This document shows, piece by piece, positions 11,854 through 22,172 of a stretch of 60,320 nt of DNA (its first letter is position 1; every line of letters begins with the position of its first letter). This DNA comes from Pseudomonadota bacterium (lineage in GTDB: Bacteria > Myxococcota_A > Polyangia > Fen-1088): positions 1 to 60,320 of the forward strand of contig JADGRB010000003.1 in NCBI GenBank assembly GCA_017881315.1, in the 5' to 3' direction. Both the position numbers and the translations under genes were made by a program. The notes under the pieces are model-generated. The model was not told where the DNA came from. It made no database searches and saw nothing but the letters and a program-made list of their open reading frames with translations.

Positions 11854-13803
11854 ATGATCACCCGCGCGCTCATCTTGGCCGCCGGCAAGGGTGTTTCGAT
11901 CGGCGAGGACGGCCACCCCAACTGCTTGACACAGGTCGGGGGCGCCAGTCTCATCGAACGGACGCTGGGGGTTCTGCTCGATGTCGGCATCCAACGAGTC
12001 GCCATCACGGTCGGTTATGGCGGCGCCGCGGTACGTCGCCATGTCGCGGGCTCGACGCGATTGACGGCGGCGGCCAAGCGGCGCCTGACGTTCTTCGAGA
12101 ATCCACAGTGGGAGGGGCCGAACGGGCTGTCGGTGCTGGCGGCGCGATCGTTCGTCACCGAGCGGACCCTGCTGCTGATGTCGGATCAGATCGCGGCCCC
12201 CGCGCTGCTGCGCGAGCTCGGCGCGCTCCCCGCCGCTTCGGGGCCCACCGTGTTGGCCGTCGATCGGGATCTGCCTCGGGTGTTCGACATCGACGATGCG
12301 ACCAAGGTGAAGCTCACCGCCGATCGGGTCACCGACATCGGCAAAGGCCTCCGGTCCTACGACGCGGTTGGCACCGGGCTCTACGTGATGGCGCCGTCCC
12401 TCTGCCAGACCCTGGAACAGTTGCCGCGGCCGTCCCTGACCGAAGGGGTCGCCGCCGCCGCCCGCGAGGGGTCGGTCGTGGGATACGACGTGGGCGCGAA
12501 GCTCTGGCAGGACGTCGACGCGCCGGAGATGAGGCTTCATGCCGAGTGGCTGCTCCGGGTCTACGGCGACGAGCTGGCGCGCCCCACGATGCAAGCCGAT
12601 CCCTCACACGCGGGCAGCGCGGCCGGGACGCTGGCGCTCATCGAACGACTGCTGGCCGAGAAGGATCAGCCGGGCTACGTCCTCTTCAGCCCCGGGCCGG
12701 TGATGACGTCGGCGCGGGTCAAGGCGGCGCTGGTCCACCACGACGTCTGCCACCGAGACAGCGACTATTCCGCCGTCGTCGAGCGTCTGCAGCAGAAGCT
12801 GCGACCGGTATTCGGCGCCTCGCCCGCGCACGAGATGTTGCTGCTGACCGGCTCGGGCACGGCGGCGATGGAGATGGCGATCTCCTCGGTCGTGGCGCCG
12901 GGGAAGAAGCTGCTGGTCGTGGCCAATGGCGCGTTCGGGGATCGACTGGACGAGATCGCCGCGCTGCACGGCATTCCGCGGGTCACGTTGCGCTTCGTCT
13001 GGGGCCAGCTGCCGAACGTGCGGGAGGTCGCGCGGGCGCTCGAAGGCGATCCGGAGATCTCGACGGTCGCGATGATCCAGCACGAGACCTCCATCGGCCT
13101 TCTGAACCCGGTCGGGGAGATCGGGCGGCTCTGCCGAGCGCGGGGCGTCACCTTGATCGTCGATGCCGTCTCGGCGCTGGGCGCCGAAGACGTCGACGTC
13201 GTGCGCGACGGCGTCGACATCTGCTACTCGTCGGCGAACAAGTGCCTGCACTCGGTCTCTGGCGTGTCGTTCCTCTGTGTCGCACCCGAGGTCTGGCCGC
13301 GGATCGCCGGCATCGCGCCGCGCGTGTACTACCTGGATCTGGTCCGCCACCGGCGCTATCTCGAGGAGCTGCGGCAGACGCCGTTCACGCCCGCGGTTTC
13401 CTCGTTCTTCGCGCTCGAGACCGCGCTCGACGAGCTCTGTGAGCAGGGCGGCGTTCCGGCCCGCCGCGAGCTGTATCGAAAGCGCAGCCTGCGCATTCGC
13501 CGGGTATTCGCCGATCTGGGCTTCGAGTCGTTCACCAACACCGGCCGTGAATCGCACACGATCTCGATGTTGCGCCTGCCCGACGGCCTTTCCGTCGACG
13601 AGCTCTACGACGGAATGAAGGCGCGCGGGTTCATCATCTACCGCGCCAAGGGCGAGCTCGGCACGCGGCATGTCCAGATCGCGAACATGGGCGAGCTGTC
13701 CGACGCGACCATCGACGCTTTTCTGGGCGCGGTCGCGGCCGTCGTCGGCGAAGCGCGTCGCGCCGGGGCCGAGGTCGCGCGCCCGGTGCTCAAGTCGGTT
13801 TGA
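11854..13803 (+). CDS. Fusion of an NTP-transferase (IPCT/LicC/PntC-like cytidylyltransferase) and a class V PLP enzyme (AEP-pyruvate transaminase-like)
   Basis: N-terminal LILAAGKG, NGLSVLAA, DDATKV, WQDVD; C-terminal SPGP, CHRD, GSGTAAME, HETSIG, IVDAVS, SSANKC (PLP Lys). Confidence 0.85.
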   Translation: MITRALILAAGKGVSIGEDGHPNCLTQVGGASLIERTLGVLLDVGIQRVAITVGYGGAAVRRHVAGSTRLTAAAKRRLTFFENPQWEGPNGLSVLAARSFVTERTLLLMSDQIAAPALLRELGALPAASGPTVLAVDRDLPRVFDIDDATKVKLTADRVTDIGKGLRSYDAVGTGLYVMAPSLCQTLEQLPRPSLTEGVAAAAREGSVVGYDVGAKLWQDVDAPEMRLHAEWLLRVYGDELARPTMQADPSHAGSAAGTLALIERLLAEKDQPGYVLFSPGPVMTSARVKAALVHHDVCHRDSDYSAVVERLQQKLRPVFGASPAHEMLLLTGSGTAAMEMAISSVVAPGKKLLVVANGAFGDRLDEIAALHGIPRVTLRFVWGQLPNVREVARALEGDPEISTVAMIQHETSIGLLNPVGEIGRLCRARGVTLIVDAVSALGAEDVDVVRDGVDICYSSANKCLHSVSGVSFLCVAPEVWPRIAGIAPRVYYLDLVRHRRYLEELRQTPFTPAVSSFFALETALDELCEQGGVPARRELYRKRSLRIRRVFADLGFESFTNTGRESHTISMLRLPDGLSVDELYDGMKARGFIIYRAKGELGTRHVQIANMGELSDATIDAFLGAVAAVVGEARRAGAEVARPVLKSV

Positions 13804-14602: not shown

Positions 14603-14681
14603 GAAAAGGAAACTTACCGCAGCCTGAATATTCCTGTCAGCCCGCGCTGACGCCCCCCCGCCGGTGCTAACCTCGGCGTCG

Positions 14682-15728
14682 ATGCGCGCCGCTCTCTTCC
14701 GCCGGCACGGCGGTCCCGAGGTGATGGAGATCGGCGACGTGCCGGTGCCGACGCCGGGGCCGGGGCAAGCGCAGGTTCGCGTCCGGGCGGCGGCGCTGAA
14801 CCACATCGACCTCTGGCTGCGCCGGGGGCTGCCCGCCCTGCAGGTTCCGCTGCCGCACGTTTCGGGCGGTGACGTCTGCGGCGAGGTCTCGGCGCTCGGC
14901 GCTGGCGTCAAGGCGATGGCTGGGACCAACGAGGGGGATCGGGTGGTCGTGAACCCGGGAATTTCTTGCGGCCGCTGCCCGGCCTGTCTCGCTGGGCGCG
15001 ACAATTTCTGCCCCGACTATCAGATGCTGGGCGAGCAGACCTGGGGCGGCCTGGCGGAATACGTGGTCGTCCCGGCCGCCAACCTGGTTCCGGCGCCGCG
15101 CGGACGTATTGCCCTCGACGACGTCCAGCTCGCATCGATTCCGATCGCCTTCATCACGGCGTGGCAGATGCTGGTCGATCGCGCCCGCATCCGGCAGGGG
15201 GAGACGGTTCTGGTTCTCGCCGCCGGCTCGGGCGTGGGGACGGCGTCGATCCAGATCGCGAAACTCTACGGCGCTCGGGTGATCGCGACGGCCTCGACGG
15301 ATGAAAAGCTGGCGGCGGCGCGGGCGCTCGGCGCGGACGAGACCATCAACCACAGCGCATCGGACATCGTGGCCGAGGTGAAGCGGCTCACCGGGAGGCG
15401 CGGCGCGGACATCGTGGTCGACCACGTGGGCGCCGCGACCTTTGGGAAATCCGTGGTGGCCTGCGCGCGCGGCGGGCGGATCGTGGTCTGCGGCGCGACC
15501 ACGGGGTTCGAGCCGGTGTTGAACCTCCGCCATGTCTTCTGGCGGCAGCTCAGCATTCTGGGCTCGACGCTGGCCAGCAAGGCTCGCCTGCCCGAAGTCC
15601 TGGAGCTCTTTGCGGCCGGGCGGCTAAAGCCGGTCGTCGATCAGGTTCAGCCGCTGGAGGCCATTGCCGAAGCCCACCGCCGACTCGAATCTCGGGCGTC
15701 GTTTGGCAAGCTGGTCTTGACGCTGTAA
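14682..15728 (+). CDS. Zinc-binding MDR family oxidoreductase
   Basis: ALNHID, CGRCPAC...C structural Zn motif, AAGSGVG, FGKLVL. Confidence 0.9.
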   Translation: MRAALFRRHGGPEVMEIGDVPVPTPGPGQAQVRVRAAALNHIDLWLRRGLPALQVPLPHVSGGDVCGEVSALGAGVKAMAGTNEGDRVVVNPGISCGRCPACLAGRDNFCPDYQMLGEQTWGGLAEYVVVPAANLVPAPRGRIALDDVQLASIPIAFITAWQMLVDRARIRQGETVLVLAAGSGVGTASIQIAKLYGARVIATASTDEKLAAARALGADETINHSASDIVAEVKRLTGRRGADIVVDHVGAATFGKSVVACARGGRIVVCGATTGFEPVLNLRHVFWRQLSILGSTLASKARLPEVLELFAAGRLKPVVDQVQPLEAIAEAHRRLESRASFGKLVLTL

Positions 15729-15767
15729 CCAGTTGGAATTACATGTGACCTACATATCCCAAAGACC

Positions 15768-15796
15768 TTGACAGCCGGCGCCAGCGACCATAATCT
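15768..15796 (+). promoter_or_regulatory. sigma70-type promoter of the merR-isc operon
   Basis: TTGACA (15768-15773), 17 bp, TAATCT (15791-15796). Confidence 0.75.
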
Positions 15797-15816
15797 AACC
15801 TTTACGTAAGGGTTAG
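15795..15816. promoter_or_regulatory. Dyad operator, probable MerR-family binding site
   Basis: CTAACCTTTAC|GTAAGGGTTAG, 10 of 11 positions paired, overlapping the predicted transcription start. Confidence 0.7.
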
Positions 15817-15821
15817 GTTTT

Positions 15822-16307
15822 ATGGATGTCCTGGCAAATAGTCTGACGCTCCTCAAGGTGGGCGAGCTGGCGAAGCGGACGGGCAAGACCGTCCGGGCGA
15901 TCCACCTCTATGAGGAGCTGGGCCTCATCGCCCCCGCCGTCCGGTCGAAGGGAGGCTTTCGCCTCTACCACGACAAGGCGGCCAAGCGGATCGACTGGAT
16001 CCAGAAGCTGCAGGAGCTGGGGTTCTCGCTGACCGAGATCAAGGCGTTCTTGCGCGACTGGGAGCAGTCCAACGCGGCCCCGAAGGCGATGGACCGGGTG
16101 CGCGAGATCTTTTCCGACAAGCTGCGCGAAACCAAGGAAAACGTGGCGCGCCTCGAGCGGCTGGTCGGCGATCTGACCGAGACCCTCGCCTACATGGACA
16201 GCTGCCGCTCCTGCGAGCCGACCCACAACCAAGCCGAATGCGGGACCTGCGGTATTCACGGCCACGGCGGCCAGGCTCCGCTGCTGGTCGAAGGGATCTC
16301 ACGATGA
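15822..16307 (+). CDS. MerR family transcriptional regulator with C-terminal CxxC-x8-CxxC
   Basis: [26 protein letters not shown]...[14 protein letters not shown], coiled coil, [21 protein letters not shown]. Stop overlaps the iscS ATG. Confidence 0.92.
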
Positions 16308-17521
16308 CGCTCAAGCTCCCCATCTACATGGACAACCACGCCACCACGCCGGTCGATCCGCGCGTCGTCGAAGCGATGCTGCCGTACTTCACCGAGATCT
16401 TCGGCAACGCGGCCAGCCGCTCGCACAGCTTCGGCTGGACGGCGGAAAAGGCGGTCGAGGCCGCGCGCGATCAGGTCGGCGCGCTGATCGGGGCGTCCGG
16501 CAAGGAGATCGTCTGGACCTCGGGGGCCACCGAGTCCGACAACCTGGCCATCAAGGGAGTGGCCGAGTTCAACAAGGATCGGGGCAACCACATCATCACG
16601 GCGCAGACGGAGCACAAGGCGGTGCTCGACACCTGCAAGCGCCTCGAGAAGGAAGGGTTCGACGTCACCTACCTTCCGGTCGAGCAAGACGGGCGCGTCA
16701 ACCCGGAGACGGTCCGCGCGGCGATGACCGACAAGACCATCCTGGTGTCGATCATGCTCGCCAACAACGAGATCGGAACGGTCAACCCGATCGAGGAGAT
16801 CGGCGCGATCGTCAAGAAGGGAGGCGCGATCTTCCATGTCGACGCCGTGCAGGGCGTCGGCAAGATTCCGTTCGACGTCAACGCGGCGCGCGTCGACCTG
16901 GCGTCCCTGTCGGCGCACAAGATGTACGGGCCCAAAGGGATCGGCGCGCTCTATGTCCGCCGCAAGCCGCGGGTGCGCATCACCGCGCAGATCGACGGGG
17001 GCGGGCACGAGCGAGGCATGCGCTCGGGGACGCTCAACGTTCCGTCCATCGTCGGCTTCGGCAAGGCGGCGGAGCTCTCTCGCACGGAGATGGCGAGCGA
17101 GGCGAAGCGGCTCTTCGCGCTGCGCGAGCGGCTGCGCGAGGGAATTCAGTCGCGGGTCACCGACACCTACATCAATGGCTCGATGGAGCATCGTCTCCCT
17201 GGCAACCTCAACATCAGCTTCGCCTACGTCGAGGGCGAAGGGATGCTGATGGGCCTCAAGGACGTGGCGGTGTCGTCGGGATCGGCCTGCACCTCGGCGT
17301 CGCTCGAGCCGTCGTACGTGCTGCGGGCGGTGGGCGTCGAAGAAGAGATGGCGCACACCTCGATCCGATTCGGCCTCGGGCGTTTCAACACCGAGGAAGA
17401 GGTCGACTACGTGATCGATCTGGTGGTCGGCAAGGTGAAAAAGCTGCGCGAGATCTCTCCGCTTTACGAGATGGCGCAGCAAGGTATCGATCTGAAGAGC
17501 ATCCAATGGGCCGCGCATTGA
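16304..17521 (+). CDS. iscS: Cysteine desulfurase IscS
   Basis: [40 protein letters not shown]-terminal IQWAAH. Confidence 0.97.
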
Positions 17522-17557
17522 GCGCCGCCTCGAAGACAACAGGAAGAGACAATCAAC

Positions 17558-18010
17558 ATGGCGTATAGCGAAAAAGTCATCGAGCACTACGAGAACCCGC
17601 GCAACGTGGGGAGCTTCGACAAGGACGACCCGAACGTCGGGACCGGACTGGTCGGCGCGCCCGCCTGCGGTGACGTGATGAAGCTCCAGCTCAAGATCAA
17701 CGACCAAGGGATCATCGAGGACGCGAAGTTCAAGACCTTCGGTTGCGGATCGGCCATCGCCTCGTCGTCGCTGGCGACGGAGTGGGTCAAGGGGATGTCG
17801 ATCGATCAGGCGATGGGAATCAAGAACACGCAGATCGTCGAGGAGCTGAACCTGCCGCCGGTGAAGATTCACTGTTCGGTCCTGGCCGAGGACGCCATCA
17901 AGGGTGCGATCGCCGACTACAAGGCAAAGCGACAGAGTGCGGCCGCGGGCCCTGCCCCGAGCGCCCCGCAGAAGGCCGCCGGCGTGGCGACCCAGAAGGC
18001 AGCCACCTAG
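17558..18010 (+). CDS. iscU: Fe-S scaffold IscU
   Basis: GAPACGD, FGCGSAIAS, LPPVKIHC. Confidence 0.98.
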   Translation: MAYSEKVIEHYENPRNVGSFDKDDPNVGTGLVGAPACGDVMKLQLKINDQGIIEDAKFKTFGCGSAIASSSLATEWVKGMSIDQAMGIKNTQIVEELNLPPVKIHCSVLAEDAIKGAIADYKAKRQSAAAGPAPSAPQKAAGVATQKAAT

Positions 18011-18019
18011 GCGACGGCC

Positions 18020-18355
18020 ATGGCCATCGGAGTGACAGACAGGGCGATCGCCGAGATCAAGAAGGCCGCCGGACAGCGCACGCCAGTTCCCAAGGGGTTG
18101 CGCGTCGGCATCCGCGGCGGCGGGTGCACGGGCTTCTCCTACCTCTTCGAATGGTCCGACAACGAGCCGCGCGGCGAGGACAAGGTCCTTTCCTTCGAGG
18201 ACGGAAGCGTGCGCGTGTTCGTCGACCCGAAGAGCCTGATCTACCTCGACGGTTCGACGCTGGAATACCAGACCACGATGATGGGGCGCGGGTTCAAGTT
18301 CATCAACCCGAACGCCAAGGGAACCTGCGGTTGCGGCGAGAGCGTCCAGTTTTAA
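18020..18355 (+). CDS. iscA: A-type Fe-S carrier IscA
   Basis: GGGCTGFSY, CGCGESVQF. Confidence 0.95.
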   Translation: MAIGVTDRAIAEIKKAAGQRTPVPKGLRVGIRGGGCTGFSYLFEWSDNEPRGEDKVLSFEDGSVRVFVDPKSLIYLDGSTLEYQTTMMGRGFKFINPNAKGTCGCGESVQF

Positions 18356-18371
18356 GGAGCGGGAGCCGAAC

Positions 18372-19043
18372 GTGATCTGCTGGTCTTGTGAACGCGAAGG
18401 GGGCGGCGGTCCGTTTTGCGGGGCTTGCAAGGCGCTCTTGCCGCCGGACGACGCGGCCGATCACTTCGCGGTGTTGGGTCTGCCGCGCGGGTACGCCTTG
18501 GATTTCCCGGCGGCGGAGGTGGCCTACCAGAAGCTCTCGCGCCAGCTCCATCCGGATCGATTTGCCACCGCGGACCCGCGGGCCCGGCGCGCCTCGCTGG
18601 GGCACACGGTGCAGCTCAACGAGGCGTGGCGCACCTTGAAGGATCCGGTGCGGCGGGCGGAATACCTGCTGGAGCTGGCGGGCGTCGACGTCGCCTCGGA
18701 CGATCAGAAGACCGGCCCGGGGGTCGAGCGCGGAACCCGGAGGTTGGCGGCACCGCCGGCCTTCTTGCTCGACATCCTGGAGGTGCATGACGACCTCGGG
18801 AATGCGCAACGTGCGGGCGACGCCGTCAAGGTCGCGTTCTTGACCGAGGAGATGCGCGGGCGCGCCGGCGAGGCGATGAAGATCATCGCGACGGCGCTCG
18901 ACACAGGATCCACCCAGGTTCCCGACCAGGGCCGTCTCGACGAGGCGGCGCGCGCGCTGATCGCGCTGCGGTACTACCGACGCTTTCTCGACGAAGCGGA
19001 CGCCTACGAAGAACGCGGGGCGGACAGGTCGGGCGGTGGCTGA
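18372..19043 (+). CDS. hscB: Co-chaperone HscB with N-terminal tetracysteine motif
   Basis: CWSC...FCGAC, J-domain [26 protein letters not shown]. Confidence 0.93.
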
Positions 19044-21016
19044 TGGCTGAGGCCCTGTTCCAGATCTCCGAGCCGGGGGCATCGCGCGTCAAGCATGCCT
19101 GCCGCACGCGTGCCGTCGGGATCGACCTCGGGACCACGAATTCGCTGGTCGCCATCGTCGACGGCGGACGGCCGATCTGTCTGACCGACGATCGGGACGA
19201 CGTTCTGGTCCCGTCGGTCGTCCACTACGCGGCAGACGGAACGGTGGTGGTGGGGGCCGAGGCGCGCGATCTGGCGTCGAGGTTTCCGCGCGACACCATC
19301 GCGTCGGTCAAGCGCTTCATGGGGCGCGGGCCGGGCGACGCCGAGGCGACCCGTCGGCTCACCCCCTATCTCTTCGCGCCCTCGGGGCCGAACGCGAACG
19401 AAGCGGTGGTCCGCTTCTCGGTCACCGGCGGGACACGCGCGGTGACGCCTCTCGAGGTGTCGGCCGAGATCTTGAAGGCGCTGCGCGCGCGCGCCGAGGC
19501 GGCGCTGGGCGGTCCGCTCGCGGGCGCGGTGATCACGGTCCCCGCCTATTTCGACGACGGGCAGCGGCAGGCCACGCGCGACGCCGGGCGGTTGGCGGGG
19601 ATCGAGGTGCTGCGCCTGCTCAACGAGCCGACGGCGGCCGCGCTGGCCTACGGCCTCGACAAGCAGGCCGAGGGGACCTTCGCCGTGTTCGACCTGGGCG
19701 GCGGGACCTTCGACGTCTCGATCCTGAAGCTTCAAGAGGGCGTCTTCGAGGTCAAGTCCACCGGCGGCGATTCGGCGCTGGGCGGCGACGATTTCGATCG
19801 GGCGATCGCCCACGCGATCATCGGGCGGCTGGGGCTGGGCGGTGAAATCGATCCGGGCACCGTCCGCCGGGTGCTCGATGCGGCGCGCGTGCTCAAGGAG
19901 AAGCTGACGACCGAGAGCGAGGCGGCGATCGAGATCGCGCTTCCCGACGGCGATCGCACCGCCACCATGCGCCTCCACCGCGCCGAGATGGACGCCCTGG
20001 TCGCGCCGGTGCTGGCGCGCTGTGGACCGTCCGTCCGACGCGCGCTCAAGGACGCCGGAGTGGACGCCTCCGCGCTCTCGGGCGTGATTCTGGTCGGCGG
20101 CGCGACCCGCATGCCGCTGGTGCGGCAGTTCGTCGAGAAGCTCTTCGGCAAGCCGCCGCTCGCCGACATCGATCCCGACCAGGTGGTCGCGCTGGGCGCC
20201 GCGGTGCAGGCCGACATCCTGGCGGGCGGCGCGGGGCAGGGCGACGTGCTCTTGCTCGACGTGGTGCCGCTGTCGCTCGGGCTCGAGACGATGGGCGGCG
20301 TCGTCGAGAAGATCATCCACCGCAACACCACCGTGCCCTGCGGCGCGACGCAGACCTTCACCACCTACGCCGACAAGCAGACCGGCTTCGAGCTCAAGGT
20401 CCTGCAGGGCGAGCGCGAGCTGGTCGCGGACTGTCGCCCGCTGGCGGAGTTTTCGCTCAAGGGGATCCCGCCCATGCCGGCCGGGATGGCCCGCCTCGAG
20501 GTGACCTTCACCGTCGACGCCGACGGCATCCTGCGCGTGAAAGCGCGCGAGGAGATCACGGGCCAGGAGGCCACGATCGACGTCAAGCCGAGCTACGGCC
20601 TCACCGACGACGAGGTCGAGCGGATGCTGCTCGATTCGTTCGCGCACGCCGAGGAGGACGTCAAGGCGCGCTTGCTGGCAGAACAGCGGGTGGAGGCCCA
20701 AGGCATCACCTCCGCGGCGCGGCTCGCGATGGCCGACGCGCCGGAGCTGCTCACCGACGCGGACCGCGTCGCGATCGAGGCGGCGCTGGTCGCGCTGGCG
20801 CGGGCCGAGGTGGGCAACGATCACCAGGCCATCCGCGCGGCGGTCGAAGAGGTGGATCACGCATCGAAAGAGTTCGCCGGGCGGCGGATGAACCGCGCGA
20901 TTGGCAGCGGCCTGCGCGGCAAGGACGTCGCCGCGGTCGAGGCGAAGGCAGACGAGACGGCATCCAAGCGCGATCTGGCGACGCGCGCCGGAAGCCACGC
21001 GGGACATTCGCACTAG
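19043..21016 (+). CDS. hscA: Fe-S chaperone HscA
   Basis: FQISEPG N-terminus, [30 protein letters not shown]; isc context. Confidence 0.95.
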
Positions 21017-21040
21017 CTCGGACCCGAGAGAAAACCACGA

Positions 21041-21409
21041 ATGCCGAAGGTCAGATTCGAGCCAGACGGGATCGAGATCGAGGTGCCGGTGGGAACCAGC
21101 ATCCTCGAGGCGTCCCAGAAGGCGCACGCGCAGGTCGGCTCCGCCTGTGGGGGCGTCTGCGCCTGTTCGACCTGCCACGTCTACGTCAAGCAGGGGCTCG
21201 AGGTGCTCGAGCCGGCCTCGGACCGCGAAGAGGACATCATGGACAAGGCCTTCGACGTGCAGGCGACCTCGCGCCTCGGCTGCCAGTCCAAGATCCTGCG
21301 CGATGCGACCGTCGTCGTGGAGATCAGCCGCGAGAGCCGCCAGGCCTTCCTCGACGAGCACCCCGACATCCGCGAAGCGCTCAAGCAGGCCGCCGGCGCC
21401 CCGCGCTGA
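21041..21409 (+). CDS. fdx: ISC [2Fe-2S] ferredoxin
   Basis: CGGVCACSTCH...RLGCQ. Confidence 0.93.
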   Translation: MPKVRFEPDGIEIEVPVGTSILEASQKAHAQVGSACGGVCACSTCHVYVKQGLEVLEPASDREEDIMDKAFDVQATSRLGCQSKILRDATVVVEISRESRQAFLDEHPDIREALKQAAGAPR

Positions 21410-21519
21410 TCAGTTCTGCGGCAAGGACCCGCCCGGTAGCTGGCCGATCGACATCTCACAGCTTCCGCCGGGAAGCTGCCGCGACTTCGCGCCGGCGATC
21501 TGAGCTGGCGGGCGATACA

Positions 21520-21548
21520 TTGCCGCACCCGGCGGCGCGAGGTATTAT
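21520..21548 (+). promoter_or_regulatory. sigma70-type promoter of the TA operon, probably leaderless
   Basis: TTGCCG, 17 bp, TATTAT, 6 nt before ATG 21555. Confidence 0.6.
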
Positions 21549-21554
21549 AAAGGT

Positions 21555-21824
21555 ATGAAATCGAATACCAAGTCCAGCATCACGCTGCCTCCAGCGGAGG
21601 TGTTGCTGGTCAACGGCCTGATGAAACGCCTTGGCGCGAGGACCAAGGTCGAGGTCGTCCGGCGTGGGCTCAATCTCCTGAAGGAGACCACAGATCGGAT
21701 CGCGCTGAAGACCGCGTATGCCGAGGCCGCGAAGGCCGTCCGGAAGTCGACTGTCGCCGAGCTGAGCGAGCTGGATTCTTGGTCCGCCGACGGATTGGAC
21801 GATGAAAGTTCAGAGATTCGGTAG
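21555..21824 (+). CDS. Putative RHH-type antitoxin
   Basis: 89 aa, N-terminal strand-helix-helix (SSITL...TKVEVVRRGL), acidic tail DGLDDE, directly upstream of the toxin. Confidence 0.75.
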   Translation: MKSNTKSSITLPPAEVLLVNGLMKRLGARTKVEVVRRGLNLLKETTDRIALKTAYAEAAKAVRKSTVAELSELDSWSADGLDDESSEIR

Positions 21825-22172
21825 ATGGCTCTGCGGATCGATCACGGCGGGCTGTACGCCGCGGCCCTCGACCCCCGTTTTGGAACCGAGCCAGGGAAAG
21901 GCCGTCCAGTGCTGGTGATCCAGACCGATCTTCTGAACGTCGCGGGCCACCCGTCGACCTGGGTCCTGCCCTGCACCACCCGGTTGGTTGGCGAGAATAT
22001 CTTGCGGGTTCGGTTGTTGCCGGGCATCGCGGGCAACGCCCGGGAGTGCGAGGTCATGATCGATCAGAGCCGCGCCATCGACAACCGACGCTTCAAGAAG
22101 AAGTTGGGCGTTCTTCCTGCGCCGCTGCTGCGCGAGGTGAAAGAGAAACTCCGTGGGCTCGGGGAGCTCTAA
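21825..22172 (+). CDS. PemK/MazF family toxin
   Basis: LDPRFGTEPGKGRPVLVIQ, LPCTT, IDQSRAIDNRRF. Confidence 0.92.
   Translation: MALRIDHGGLYAAALDPRFGTEPGKGRPVLVIQTDLLNVAGHPSTWVLPCTTRLVGENILRVRLLPGIAGNARECEVMIDQSRAIDNRRFKKKLGVLPAPLLREVKEKLRGLGEL

Follow-up and report, generated by a model that had tools for sequence, protein, structure and literature searches.

A Cys4-bearing MerR-family protein at the head of the isc operon: a candidate regulator of iron-sulfur cluster assembly in Myxococcota

Control of iron-sulfur (Fe-S) cluster supply has been worked out for few types of regulator: IscR, RisR and RirA, which belong to the Rrf2 family, and SufR. Here we describe a locus in a 60,320-nt stretch of bacterial DNA (hereafter the window; positions 1 to 60,320 of contig JADGRB010000003.1, assembly GCA_017881315.1, placed by GTDB in Myxococcota_A, Polyangia, Fen-1088), in which the isc operon begins with a gene for a 161-aa MerR-family protein whose C-terminal tail carries four cysteines (Cys4). 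The proposal that this regulator belongs to an undescribed MerR subfamily, which would take the role of IscR, is well supported by comparison: a large, consistently placed family of another fold appears to control Fe-S supply. A sequence-only reading of the window had presented the system as an undescribed candidate. In agreement with this, our full-text literature searches, which had most subscription journals and supplements outside their coverage, found no description of a MerR-type regulator of isc or suf. The word MerR does not occur in the paper on RisR of Myxococcus xanthus (PMC9973013), and the accessible parts of a 2024 review name only SoxR, NmlR, AdhR, CoaR, MliR and NimR as unconventional or redox-sensing MerR proteins (PMC11672702). 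We also weighed and discarded MliR, a MerR-like regulator linked to iron, which according to the accessible part of its authors' account has neither an effector domain nor cysteines.

The likeness to IscR of Proteobacteria lies in the position as first isc gene, in presumed autoregulation, in a Cys-rich site with a His, and in feedback from cluster supply. The two proteins differ in fold, which is unrelated, in their operators, and in their ligands: IscR uses three Cys and one His, whereas the tail here has CxxC-x8-CxxC, at which a cluster is only predicted. As an IscR-like role would require, the regulator is the first isc gene and appears to have a candidate operator of its own at the promoter. 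In the same phylum, RisR of M. xanthus (Rrf2 group IS6), encoded before suf, is described as a repressor of both isc and suf; its site at isc covers the -10/start region, and the isc operon there is without iscR and iscX (PMC9973013). Our locus shares with it the phylum, a putative site over the -10/start region of isc, and an isc operon lacking iscR and iscX. It differs in that RisR is an Rrf2 protein controlling both machineries from before suf, while neither its motif nor SufB was found here. The RisR site, T(t/g)GAC-N7-GTCC(t/a), was tried and rejected: 15500-15900 has no match at up to two mismatches, and the window contains no exact one; SufB was not found in the genome, which is 91% complete in 541 contigs. 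SufR of cyanobacteria and actinobacteria is likewise an Fe-S-holding autorepressor beside the machinery it controls (reference list of PMC9973013), but its fold and its SUF machinery are different, and it has no sequence relation to the Cys4 regulator.

Among MerR proteins, SoxR, which binds a [2Fe-2S] cluster, has the same fold and holds the four Cys of one protomer in a loop at the end of the dimerisation helix; its CIGCGCLSxxC motif (PMC11672702) is absent here, where the tail reads CRSC-x8-CGTC. SoxR activates from within a long-spacer promoter and its target is soxS, whereas the regulator described here fronts Fe-S assembly genes. CueR, ZntR, CadR and MerR are the best sequence and profile matches and have their ligand loop in the same place; the Cys4 regulator differs from them in having no Cys at the helix start, a putative operator past the -10, and a target that is not an efflux gene. 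HspR and CarH/CarA resemble it as proteins with MerR-type DNA-binding domains that repress, but their sensor parts, DnaK-dependent in HspR and a B12 domain in CarH, differ from that of the Cys4 regulator.

A MerR gene with a conserved Cys4 motif before iscS

The operon comprises the following genes.

15822..16307, plus strand: MerR-family regulator gene, 161 aa (Pfam and NCBIfam matches, AlphaFold2 model, fold match)
16304..17521, plus strand: iscS, cysteine desulfurase (NF010611, 692.6 bits against a cut-off of 548)
17558..18010, plus strand: iscU, scaffold (TIGR01999, 229.6 bits against 192.4)
18020..18355, plus strand: iscA, A-type carrier (TIGR00049, 101.5 bits against 58.8)
18372..19043, plus strand: hscB, co-chaperone (TIGR00714, 63.8 bits against 46.75)
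19043..21016, plus strand: hscA, chaperone (TIGR01991, 811.8 bits against 708.55)
21041..21409, plus strand: fdx, ISC-type [2Fe-2S] ferredoxin (Pfam Fer2, 7.7e-11, over the cut-off)

Open reading frames, Pfam and NCBIfam agree with the earlier claim that the MerR gene comes first in the isc unit and that its stop overlaps the iscS start: the TGA at 16305-16307 and the ATG at 16304-16306 lie within ATGA at 16304-16307. The protein matches MerR_1 (PF13411; 3.4e-14, 53.1 bits against a cut-off of 21.6), MerR (PF00376; 1.5e-11, 44.4 against 28.2) and MerR-DNA-bind (PF09278; 3.3e-9, 37.7 against 25.4), and has no match to the Rrf2 domain (PF02082) at E up to 0.01. Its best NCBIfam matches reach 52-76 bits against equivalog cut-offs of 117-168: CueR (75.9 against 147.4), ZntR (68.3 against 167.95), CadR-PbrR (62.8 against 151.45), MerR (60.1 against 150.85) and SoxR (TIGR01950, 51.9 against 116.9). 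Since all these scores fall far under the cut-offs, the regulator lies outside the five equivalogs; together with the missing SoxR motif, this bears out the distinctness from SoxR, CueR and ZntR that had been claimed. The labels given to homologues in public annotation, 'MerR family copper efflux regulator' or 'Zn(II)-responsive regulator of zntA', are unsupported by the equivalog scores. The tail is CRSC-x8-CGTC-GIHGH, as first read, and C128, C131, C140 and C143 are the only cysteines of the protein.

The merR-iscS linkage is strongly conserved. A match to the regulator is present in 33 of 41 related genomes (23 of 24 within the genus), and iscS follows it at once in 28 of 30 loci from such genomes, the other two being truncated where the contig ends. 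Scanning a single genome for each species, through one peptide pattern, gave 595 relatives; in 79 of the best 80, which we inspected, the regulator is followed by iscS-iscU-iscA-hscB-hscA; one locus is cut. These 80 are all metagenome-assembled genomes (MAGs), named as Myxococcota, Polyangia, Kofleriaceae, Haliangiales or Sandaracinaceae, or bearing older 'delta/proteobacterium' labels. In a profile search of Myxococcota, 185 of 401 genomes had a match at E <=1e-20, with bimodal scores; the best 30 loci were iscS-linked without exception (30/30), and members from other Myxococcota classes, at 34-47% identity, were linked likewise. All fetched loci were then pooled, counting identical proteins once and taking profile scores of at least 140 bits. 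The resulting 155 proteins, from genomes and metagenomes, comprise 138 encoded directly 5' of a cysteine desulfurase gene, 7 without this neighbour and 10 too near a contig end to judge. For five of the seven unlinked proteins the genome encodes a linked copy too; these second copies belong to a nested clade adjoining a gene for an extracytoplasmic function (ECF) sigma factor. Thus the linkage is not unique to the genome in which it was noticed, and the merR-isc observation is far beyond chance.

The four cysteines are kept as well. The strict motif CxxC-x5-14-CxxC is present in 136 of the 138 linked proteins, the two exceptions having CxxC...C...H and CxxxC...CxxC, which confirms the conservation expected by the sequence-only reading. 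This count comes from the pooled set and is free of the row selection in our alignment A1, where four-Cys invariance proves nothing because the rows were picked for having the motif. Within the close subfamily the Cys4 spacer is exactly 8 residues in 140/153 proteins, and a His stands 2-8 residues past the last Cys in 144/153. In a library of 1.84 billion proteins, 77 of the best 150 cluster representatives carry the strict motif; the rest are mostly fragments, CxxxC variants and single-CxxC forms. A second conserved element, P-x-L-V-x-G, lies at the C-terminus: P153 occurs in at least 90% of the A1 rows, and P-x-h-h in 155 of 194 Cys4-bearing members. It distantly resembles the LPPVK motif of IscU (residue 99 in the protein encoded here). 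The regulator thus has all the features by which we would define the proposed subfamily, namely CxxC-x7-10-CxxC followed by a His, P-x-L-V-x-G, a desulfurase gene directly 3', and an ACGT palindrome 5'.

16203..16250, plus strand: codons of C128-x2-C131-x8-C140-x2-C143, candidate sensor loop where the dimerisation helix ends (sequence, AlphaFold2 model)
16278..16295, plus strand: codons of the conserved C-terminal P-x-L-V-x-G, a helix in the model (alignment, AlphaFold2 model)

An AlphaFold2 model built on 43 family members (mean pLDDT 90.3, pTM 0.75) has a winged helix-turn-helix and a long helix, 86-128. C128 and C131 stand at the end of this helix, C140 and C143 in or just past a short helix (137-142), and the final helix (154-160) bears P-x-L-V-x-G as a packed helix rather than an extended peptide. 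Foldseek returned only MerR-family folds, with solved MerR proteins at probability 1.00, SoxR (2zhg) among them. When the family profile was searched against solved structures, matches were confined to positions 6-127, and no solved chain in that search covered the Cys4 tail. In the MerR metal sensors CueR, ZntR and SoxR, the ligand loop lies at the C-terminal end of the dimerisation helix (PMC11672702). Because C128 and C131 end that helix in the model, the four Cys would occupy the position of the metal-binding loop of MerR sensors. An ESM Atlas search with the tail gave best scores of 0.84-0.87, under the reliability level, with one fragment cluster named SoxR; a search with the whole protein gave look-alike clusters, commonest in Bacillota and Spirochaetota. 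Both are leads only.

We compared the distribution of the regulator with that of SufB by a hand tally over the same 401 Myxococcota genomes; given the kinship of the genomes, the outcome should be read as a pattern and not as a statistic. Of the 104 genomes with a strong match to the ISC-type regulator, 15 had a SufB match, against 227 of the 297 others. The contrast is visible between families:

family f7: regulator in 29/29 genomes, SufB in 1/29
family f29: regulator in 1/34 (a weak match), SufB in 34/34
family f15: only the paralogous regulator type described below, SufB in 23/23

In Myxococcota, the regulator is thus mostly found where SufB is not. In the accessible part of their paper, Sourice et al. 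leave undecided whether the ISC machinery of M. xanthus is an oddity among the 'Deltaproteobacteria' (PMC9973013). Our sample is relevant here: many sampled Myxococcota have ISC together with a Cys4-MerR protein, and no SufB was found in them.

A further family, f32, has no regulator match in 29 genomes, and its IscU is over the cut-off in 12 of 21. In four of six f32 loci an Rrf2 gene (148-200 aa, C-x6-C-x5-C..H) lies directly 5' of iscS (L276, 2928-3371, minus strand; L278, 2695-3297, minus strand; also L277 and L279); a gene for an ApbC/NUBPL-type P-loop NTPase stands divergently upstream in these loci. Conversely, tblastn found no Rrf2 homologue in 180 fetched MerR-headed loci. Within one phylum, therefore, the slot 5' of iscS holds either a Cys4-MerR gene or an Rrf2 gene. 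The finding is consistent with an IscR-type regulator having been replaced by a non-orthologous one, and is the best comparative support for the earlier description of the MerR protein as a replacement for IscR. In M. xanthus the slot appears to be empty (PMC9973013, as far as accessible). Together, these differences within the phylum offer a clean system for studying regulator displacement.

Linkage, Cys4 motif, palindrome and the f32 slot favour a replacement; that the MerR protein stands in place of IscR holds for the operon, but not necessarily for the cell. The sequence-only reading had seen neither an Rrf2 gene nor iscX in the window. A profile search found no Rrf2 gene on the isc contig, and IscX (PF04384) was not found in the genome; three Rrf2 matches do lie on other contigs (C100, C525 and C115). 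The one on C100 (L001, 1444-1911, minus strand) is a 155-aa protein with four Cys in its C-terminal half, which falls under the IscR, CymR, NsrR and RirA equivalog cut-offs and has no Fe-S gene adjoining. The genome may have in it a second regulator that senses clusters.

A candidate operator and a proposed mechanism

Upstream of the regulator gene we read the following elements.

15768..15773, plus strand: -35-like hexamer TTGACA (read from the sequence)
15789..15796, plus strand: candidate -10, either CATAAT (15-nt spacer) or TAATCT (17-nt spacer), inferred from the sequence
15795..15816, no strand: palindromic candidate operator CTAACCTTTACGTAAGGGTTAG, ACGT-centred, self-complementary at 20 of 22 positions

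The palindrome CTAACCTTTACGTAAGGGTTAG is placed between TTGACA and the regulator ATG at 15822. When up to 3 mismatches were allowed, it matched the 5.47-Mb genome once and a reversed-sequence control not at all. Neither the palindrome nor either of two looser forms gave anything credible elsewhere in the genome that would suggest a wider regulon. With relaxed patterns (AACC-N2-TACGTA-N2-GGTT, or a form with two ACGT cores), 117 of 138 close-subfamily loci have a related element in the 230 nt upstream, compared with 0 of 154 control windows, which were placed within the gene downstream. The element most commonly starts 30-33 nt past TTGAC (38 loci), with a second group at 41-52 nt, and some lineages have an extra copy 5' of the -35.

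Classical MerR activators work at long-spacer promoters with the dyad between -35 and -10 (PMC11672702). Such a layout, with its spacer of 19-20 bp, is not found here or in the homologous loci. The dyad centre lies 33 nt past the end of TTGACA, which is separated from the candidate -10 by 15-17 nt. Operator layout defines mechanism rather than fold family, and a dyad read over the -10/start region has the geometry of a repressor, not of a long-spacer activator. The promoter that the sequence-only reading had placed before the operon has a conserved TTGACA, but was not called by a simple sigma-70 consensus scan.

Contigs from soil metatranscriptomes, which come from relatives since they are 90-97% like the window, bridge the regulator-iscS junction in three cases: X17 record 17 (15805-16429), X15 record 2 (16058-16493) and X16 record 9 (16101-16341). 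Summed depth in the RNA libraries is about 0 over 15607-15813 in three of four runs, and about 10-12 over 15814-16020. These contigs lend weak support to the proposed layout, and are no proof of a transcript or of its start.

From the gene order and the palindrome, we consider it very probable that the regulator is a dedicated autoregulator, the isc operon's own, acting at the palindrome; it stands as first gene of an assembly operon across deep divergence, which is one ground for this view. That it represses isc is likely, though we hold this with less assurance. A dimer of the regulator would bind the ACGT-centred palindrome at 15795-15816. Since the palindrome abuts or overlaps the -10 and start-site region, repression by occlusion would be the most likely mode, rather than the DNA twisting of MerR activators. 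An Fe-S cluster from the ISC machinery would sit at the Cys4 site with its conserved His, the holo-protein would repress isc, and loss of the cluster upon iron shortage, oxidant exposure or high demand would release the operon. The feedback logic would be the same as that of IscR, RisR and SufR, on a different fold.

An Fe-S cluster as the ligand of the Cys4(-His) loop is our leading hypothesis, a tentative one. It is suggested by the known regulators in this slot, which sense clusters, by the Rrf2 protein in the same slot in f32, which has cluster-type ligands, and by enrichment of the regulator in lineages where ISC seems to be the sole machinery; sensing through Cys4 is suggested by the location of the site in what is the sensory loop of the fold. 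The regulator would then be a second natural example, besides SoxR, of a MerR metal-binding loop possibly adapted to a cluster, and a MerR protein whose placement is that of a repressor instead of an activator. The prediction can be tested directly, with one 161-aa protein and a 60-bp DNA fragment.

Alternative readings of the Cys4 loop

The Cys4-MerR family extends beyond the close subfamily. A metagenome scan seeded with a distant subgroup brought up more Cys4-MerR subfamilies adjoining Fe-S genes, which can be told apart by their tails:

'...KGDH...LPxLVDA' type: 5' of iscS (58-61% identity) and iscA
'...PRMVAT' type: 5' of full isc operons
'CLCC...VPDLVECA' type: 5' of iscA-iscS
'NNxCEPC...LSALF' type: 5' of a 37-49% desulfurase
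one further metagenome member: 5' of an iscU-like gene

Relatives of the 'CLCC' type bear NCBI names from Latescibacterota and Gemmatimonadota MAGs. A precomputed Pfam label, PF28507, is attached to one protein (P0275) and to many members of Latescibacterota or Gemmatimonadota type. A FastTree phylogeny of 121 rows, thinned from 201 by taking every third close relative and all unlinked, picked and metagenome rows, unites, with support 96, 60 linked proteins, 7 no-room ones and the 5 ECF-linked ones in a single clade; desulfurase-linked clades also lie across the midpoint. Two loci of family f50 (L152, L162) have behind the regulator a desulfurase (55-57% to IscS) with iscA, hscB and a distant Hsp70, with no iscU in view, and in two of f73 (L160, L165) the regulator is followed by a lone 38-39% desulfurase.

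A paralogous Myxococcota subfamily, at 25-33% identity and matched by the family profile with E of 1e-29 to 1e-36, retains Cys4, with LPRAxRLLW as its tail, and occurs mainly in families that also have SufB, f15 being an example. Three of its members (L175, L176, L183) have a different upstream palindrome, of TTCCA...TGGAA type, and one basal member is iscS-linked (L179). The folE-linked loci, and those of second ISC-type copies in f50, are these:

L174, 3431-4483, minus strand: paralogue and folE
L172, 3299-4621, minus strand: paralogue and folE
L169, 3365-4507, minus strand: paralogue and folE
L185, 3935-5507, plus strand: paralogue and folE
L153, 2083-3275, minus strand: second copy in f50
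L163, 3771-4867, plus strand: second copy in f50
L164, 3998-5091, plus strand: second copy in f50

In one of the folE-linked loci, DUF2203 stands between paralogue and folE. The f50 second copies retain the same upstream ACGT palindrome as the isc-linked genes.

Several of these observations, and some from the preceding sections, weigh against the proposal of a cluster-binding autorepressor of isc. The LPRAxRLLW paralogues lie directly 5' of folE (GTP cyclohydrolase I, PF01227) in 4 of 5 inspected loci; the second ISC-type copies of f50 have an ECF sigma gene 3' (3 of 3 inspected loci of this type) and a deoxynucleoside kinase gene 5'. Because its bearers precede folE or an ECF sigma gene, the Cys4 module is not specific to Fe-S genes, and such paralogues argue for a more general redox or metal signal. 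CxxC-x8-CxxC equally suits a zinc site, and HscB, encoded next door, has a similar motif. In the model, the Cys loop is less well predicted than the rest, with a block-mean pLDDT of 72-87. On the DNA side, 21 of the 138 upstream regions are without the element by the relaxed patterns, many showing TTAACGTAA variants by eye, and the sigma-70 consensus scan (15500-21800) did not call a promoter at 15768 because neither -10 candidate satisfies its rule. RNA libraries can contain DNA, which is a caveat on the junction-bridging contigs, and the cysteine-rich Rrf2 protein on C100 could act on isc too.

In a first alternative, Cys4 would be a Zn-thiolate redox switch with structural Zn(II): oxidants would form CxxC disulfides, release the Zn(II) and alter DNA binding, and so induce isc, folE or the ECF gene within a response to oxidative stress. 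Zinc sites, and redox switches like RsrA and Hsp33, typically have paired CxxC. A similar motif occurs in HscB from this operon (in 53 of 87 homologues), some representatives of the regulator family retain one CxxC pair only, and the ECF- and folE-adjoining paralogues are easier to reconcile with a general stress signal than with one specific to Fe-S. Yet the regulator heads a cluster-assembly operon in 138 of the 145 judgeable cases, the His conserved in 144/153 would be superfluous for a Cys4 zinc site, and IscR, RisR and SufR, the regulators described for that slot, sense clusters (PMC9973013). We regard the zinc switch as unlikely.

Quite unlikely, in our judgement, is a direct metal-ion sensor of the ZntR/CadR/CueR kind, in which Cys4 would bind Fe(II), Zn(II) or another thiophilic ion, for instance to report poisoning of cluster assembly by zinc or copper. 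CueR, ZntR and CadR-PbrR are indeed the best NCBIfam matches, Cys4 lies in what is the metal-binding loop of the family, and, GTP cyclohydrolase I of the folE type being a zinc enzyme, the folE-linked paralogues would agree with a zinc signal. The equivalog scores, all far under cut-off, speak against this reading, as does the palindrome, whose place is past the -10, while efflux activators have theirs between -35 and -10; there is no linked efflux gene. A further difference lies in the ligands: the divalent-metal sensors ZntR, CadR and MerR have a ligand Cys at the N-terminus of the dimerisation helix, contributed by the other protomer (PMC11672702). This Cys is missing here, the only cysteines being residues 128, 131, 140 and 143.

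Cys4 might also be purely structural, the signal coming from titration by a partner (HscA or HscB) or through P-x-L-V-x-G. The LPPVK motif of IscU functions in HscA binding, and the conserved C-terminal motif (P-x-h-h in 155/194) is distantly like it; HspR, a MerR-type repressor of chaperone genes that uses DnaK, would be a precedent, and its model (NF047375) matches the regulator at 27.9 bits. That score is far below the 105-bit cut-off, however, the C-terminal motif is modelled as a packed helix, and the module is kept beside desulfurase genes with no hscBA in view (for example L211, L215 and L218). A complex prediction for HscA 401-620 with the regulator tail 118-161 scored 0.02 and was uninformative either way. 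All in all, a purely structural Cys4 seems very unlikely to us. Finally, an ordinary MerR gene lying beside isc by chance or shared ancestry, with no role there, would profit from the non-independence of carriers that are mostly related Myxococcota, but is hardly credible given linkage across several classes and down to about 35-45% identity, and in separate subfamilies of other phyla, a regulator stop that overlaps the iscS start in this genus, and a conserved palindrome that occurs once in the genome, before the isc operon.

If Cys4 is indeed a cluster site, it is tempting to speculate that these proteins form a third structural class of feedback regulator of Fe-S biogenesis, after Rrf2 and SufR: a MerR-fold repressor with an ISC-made cluster, standard in the many Myxococcota where SUF was not found, with sisters beside desulfurase genes in other phyla (Latescibacterota, Gemmatimonadota) and with folE and ECF paralogues carrying the same signal. 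We offer this as a possibility, still more tentatively than the cluster itself.

Other genes around the operon

At the end of the operon, fdx falls under the cut-off of the model TIGR02007 (95.6 bits against 132.1). A consensus scan of 15500-21800 revealed no convincing terminator 3' of fdx, and there is no tRNA gene 3' of the operon, in contrast to M. xanthus. The HscB motif mentioned above, CxxC-x9-CxxC, lies at the N-terminus of the protein (window 18372-18450), and the count of 53 in 87 refers to non-redundant homologues from the fetched loci. It recalls the zinc-binding N-terminal domain of mitochondrial HSC20; to our knowledge, E. coli HscB is without it.

Directly 3' of fdx there is an 89-aa open reading frame without a Pfam match, followed by a PemK/MazF-like toxin gene (window 21555-22172 for this stretch; the toxin is 115 aa, PF02452 at 2.3e-19). 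The two likely form a type II toxin-antitoxin pair with promoter-like sites of its own at 21520-21571. On the other side, a gene for a zinc-type alcohol dehydrogenase or quinone oxidoreductase (window 14664-15728) lies 5' of the regulator. Its place is kept in many relatives, 'adh' matches occurring upstream of the regulator in 26 of the best 80 named MAG loci. Further upstream (window 11854-13803), a 649-aa fusion joins a MobA-like nucleotidyltransferase domain to a class-V aminotransferase domain.

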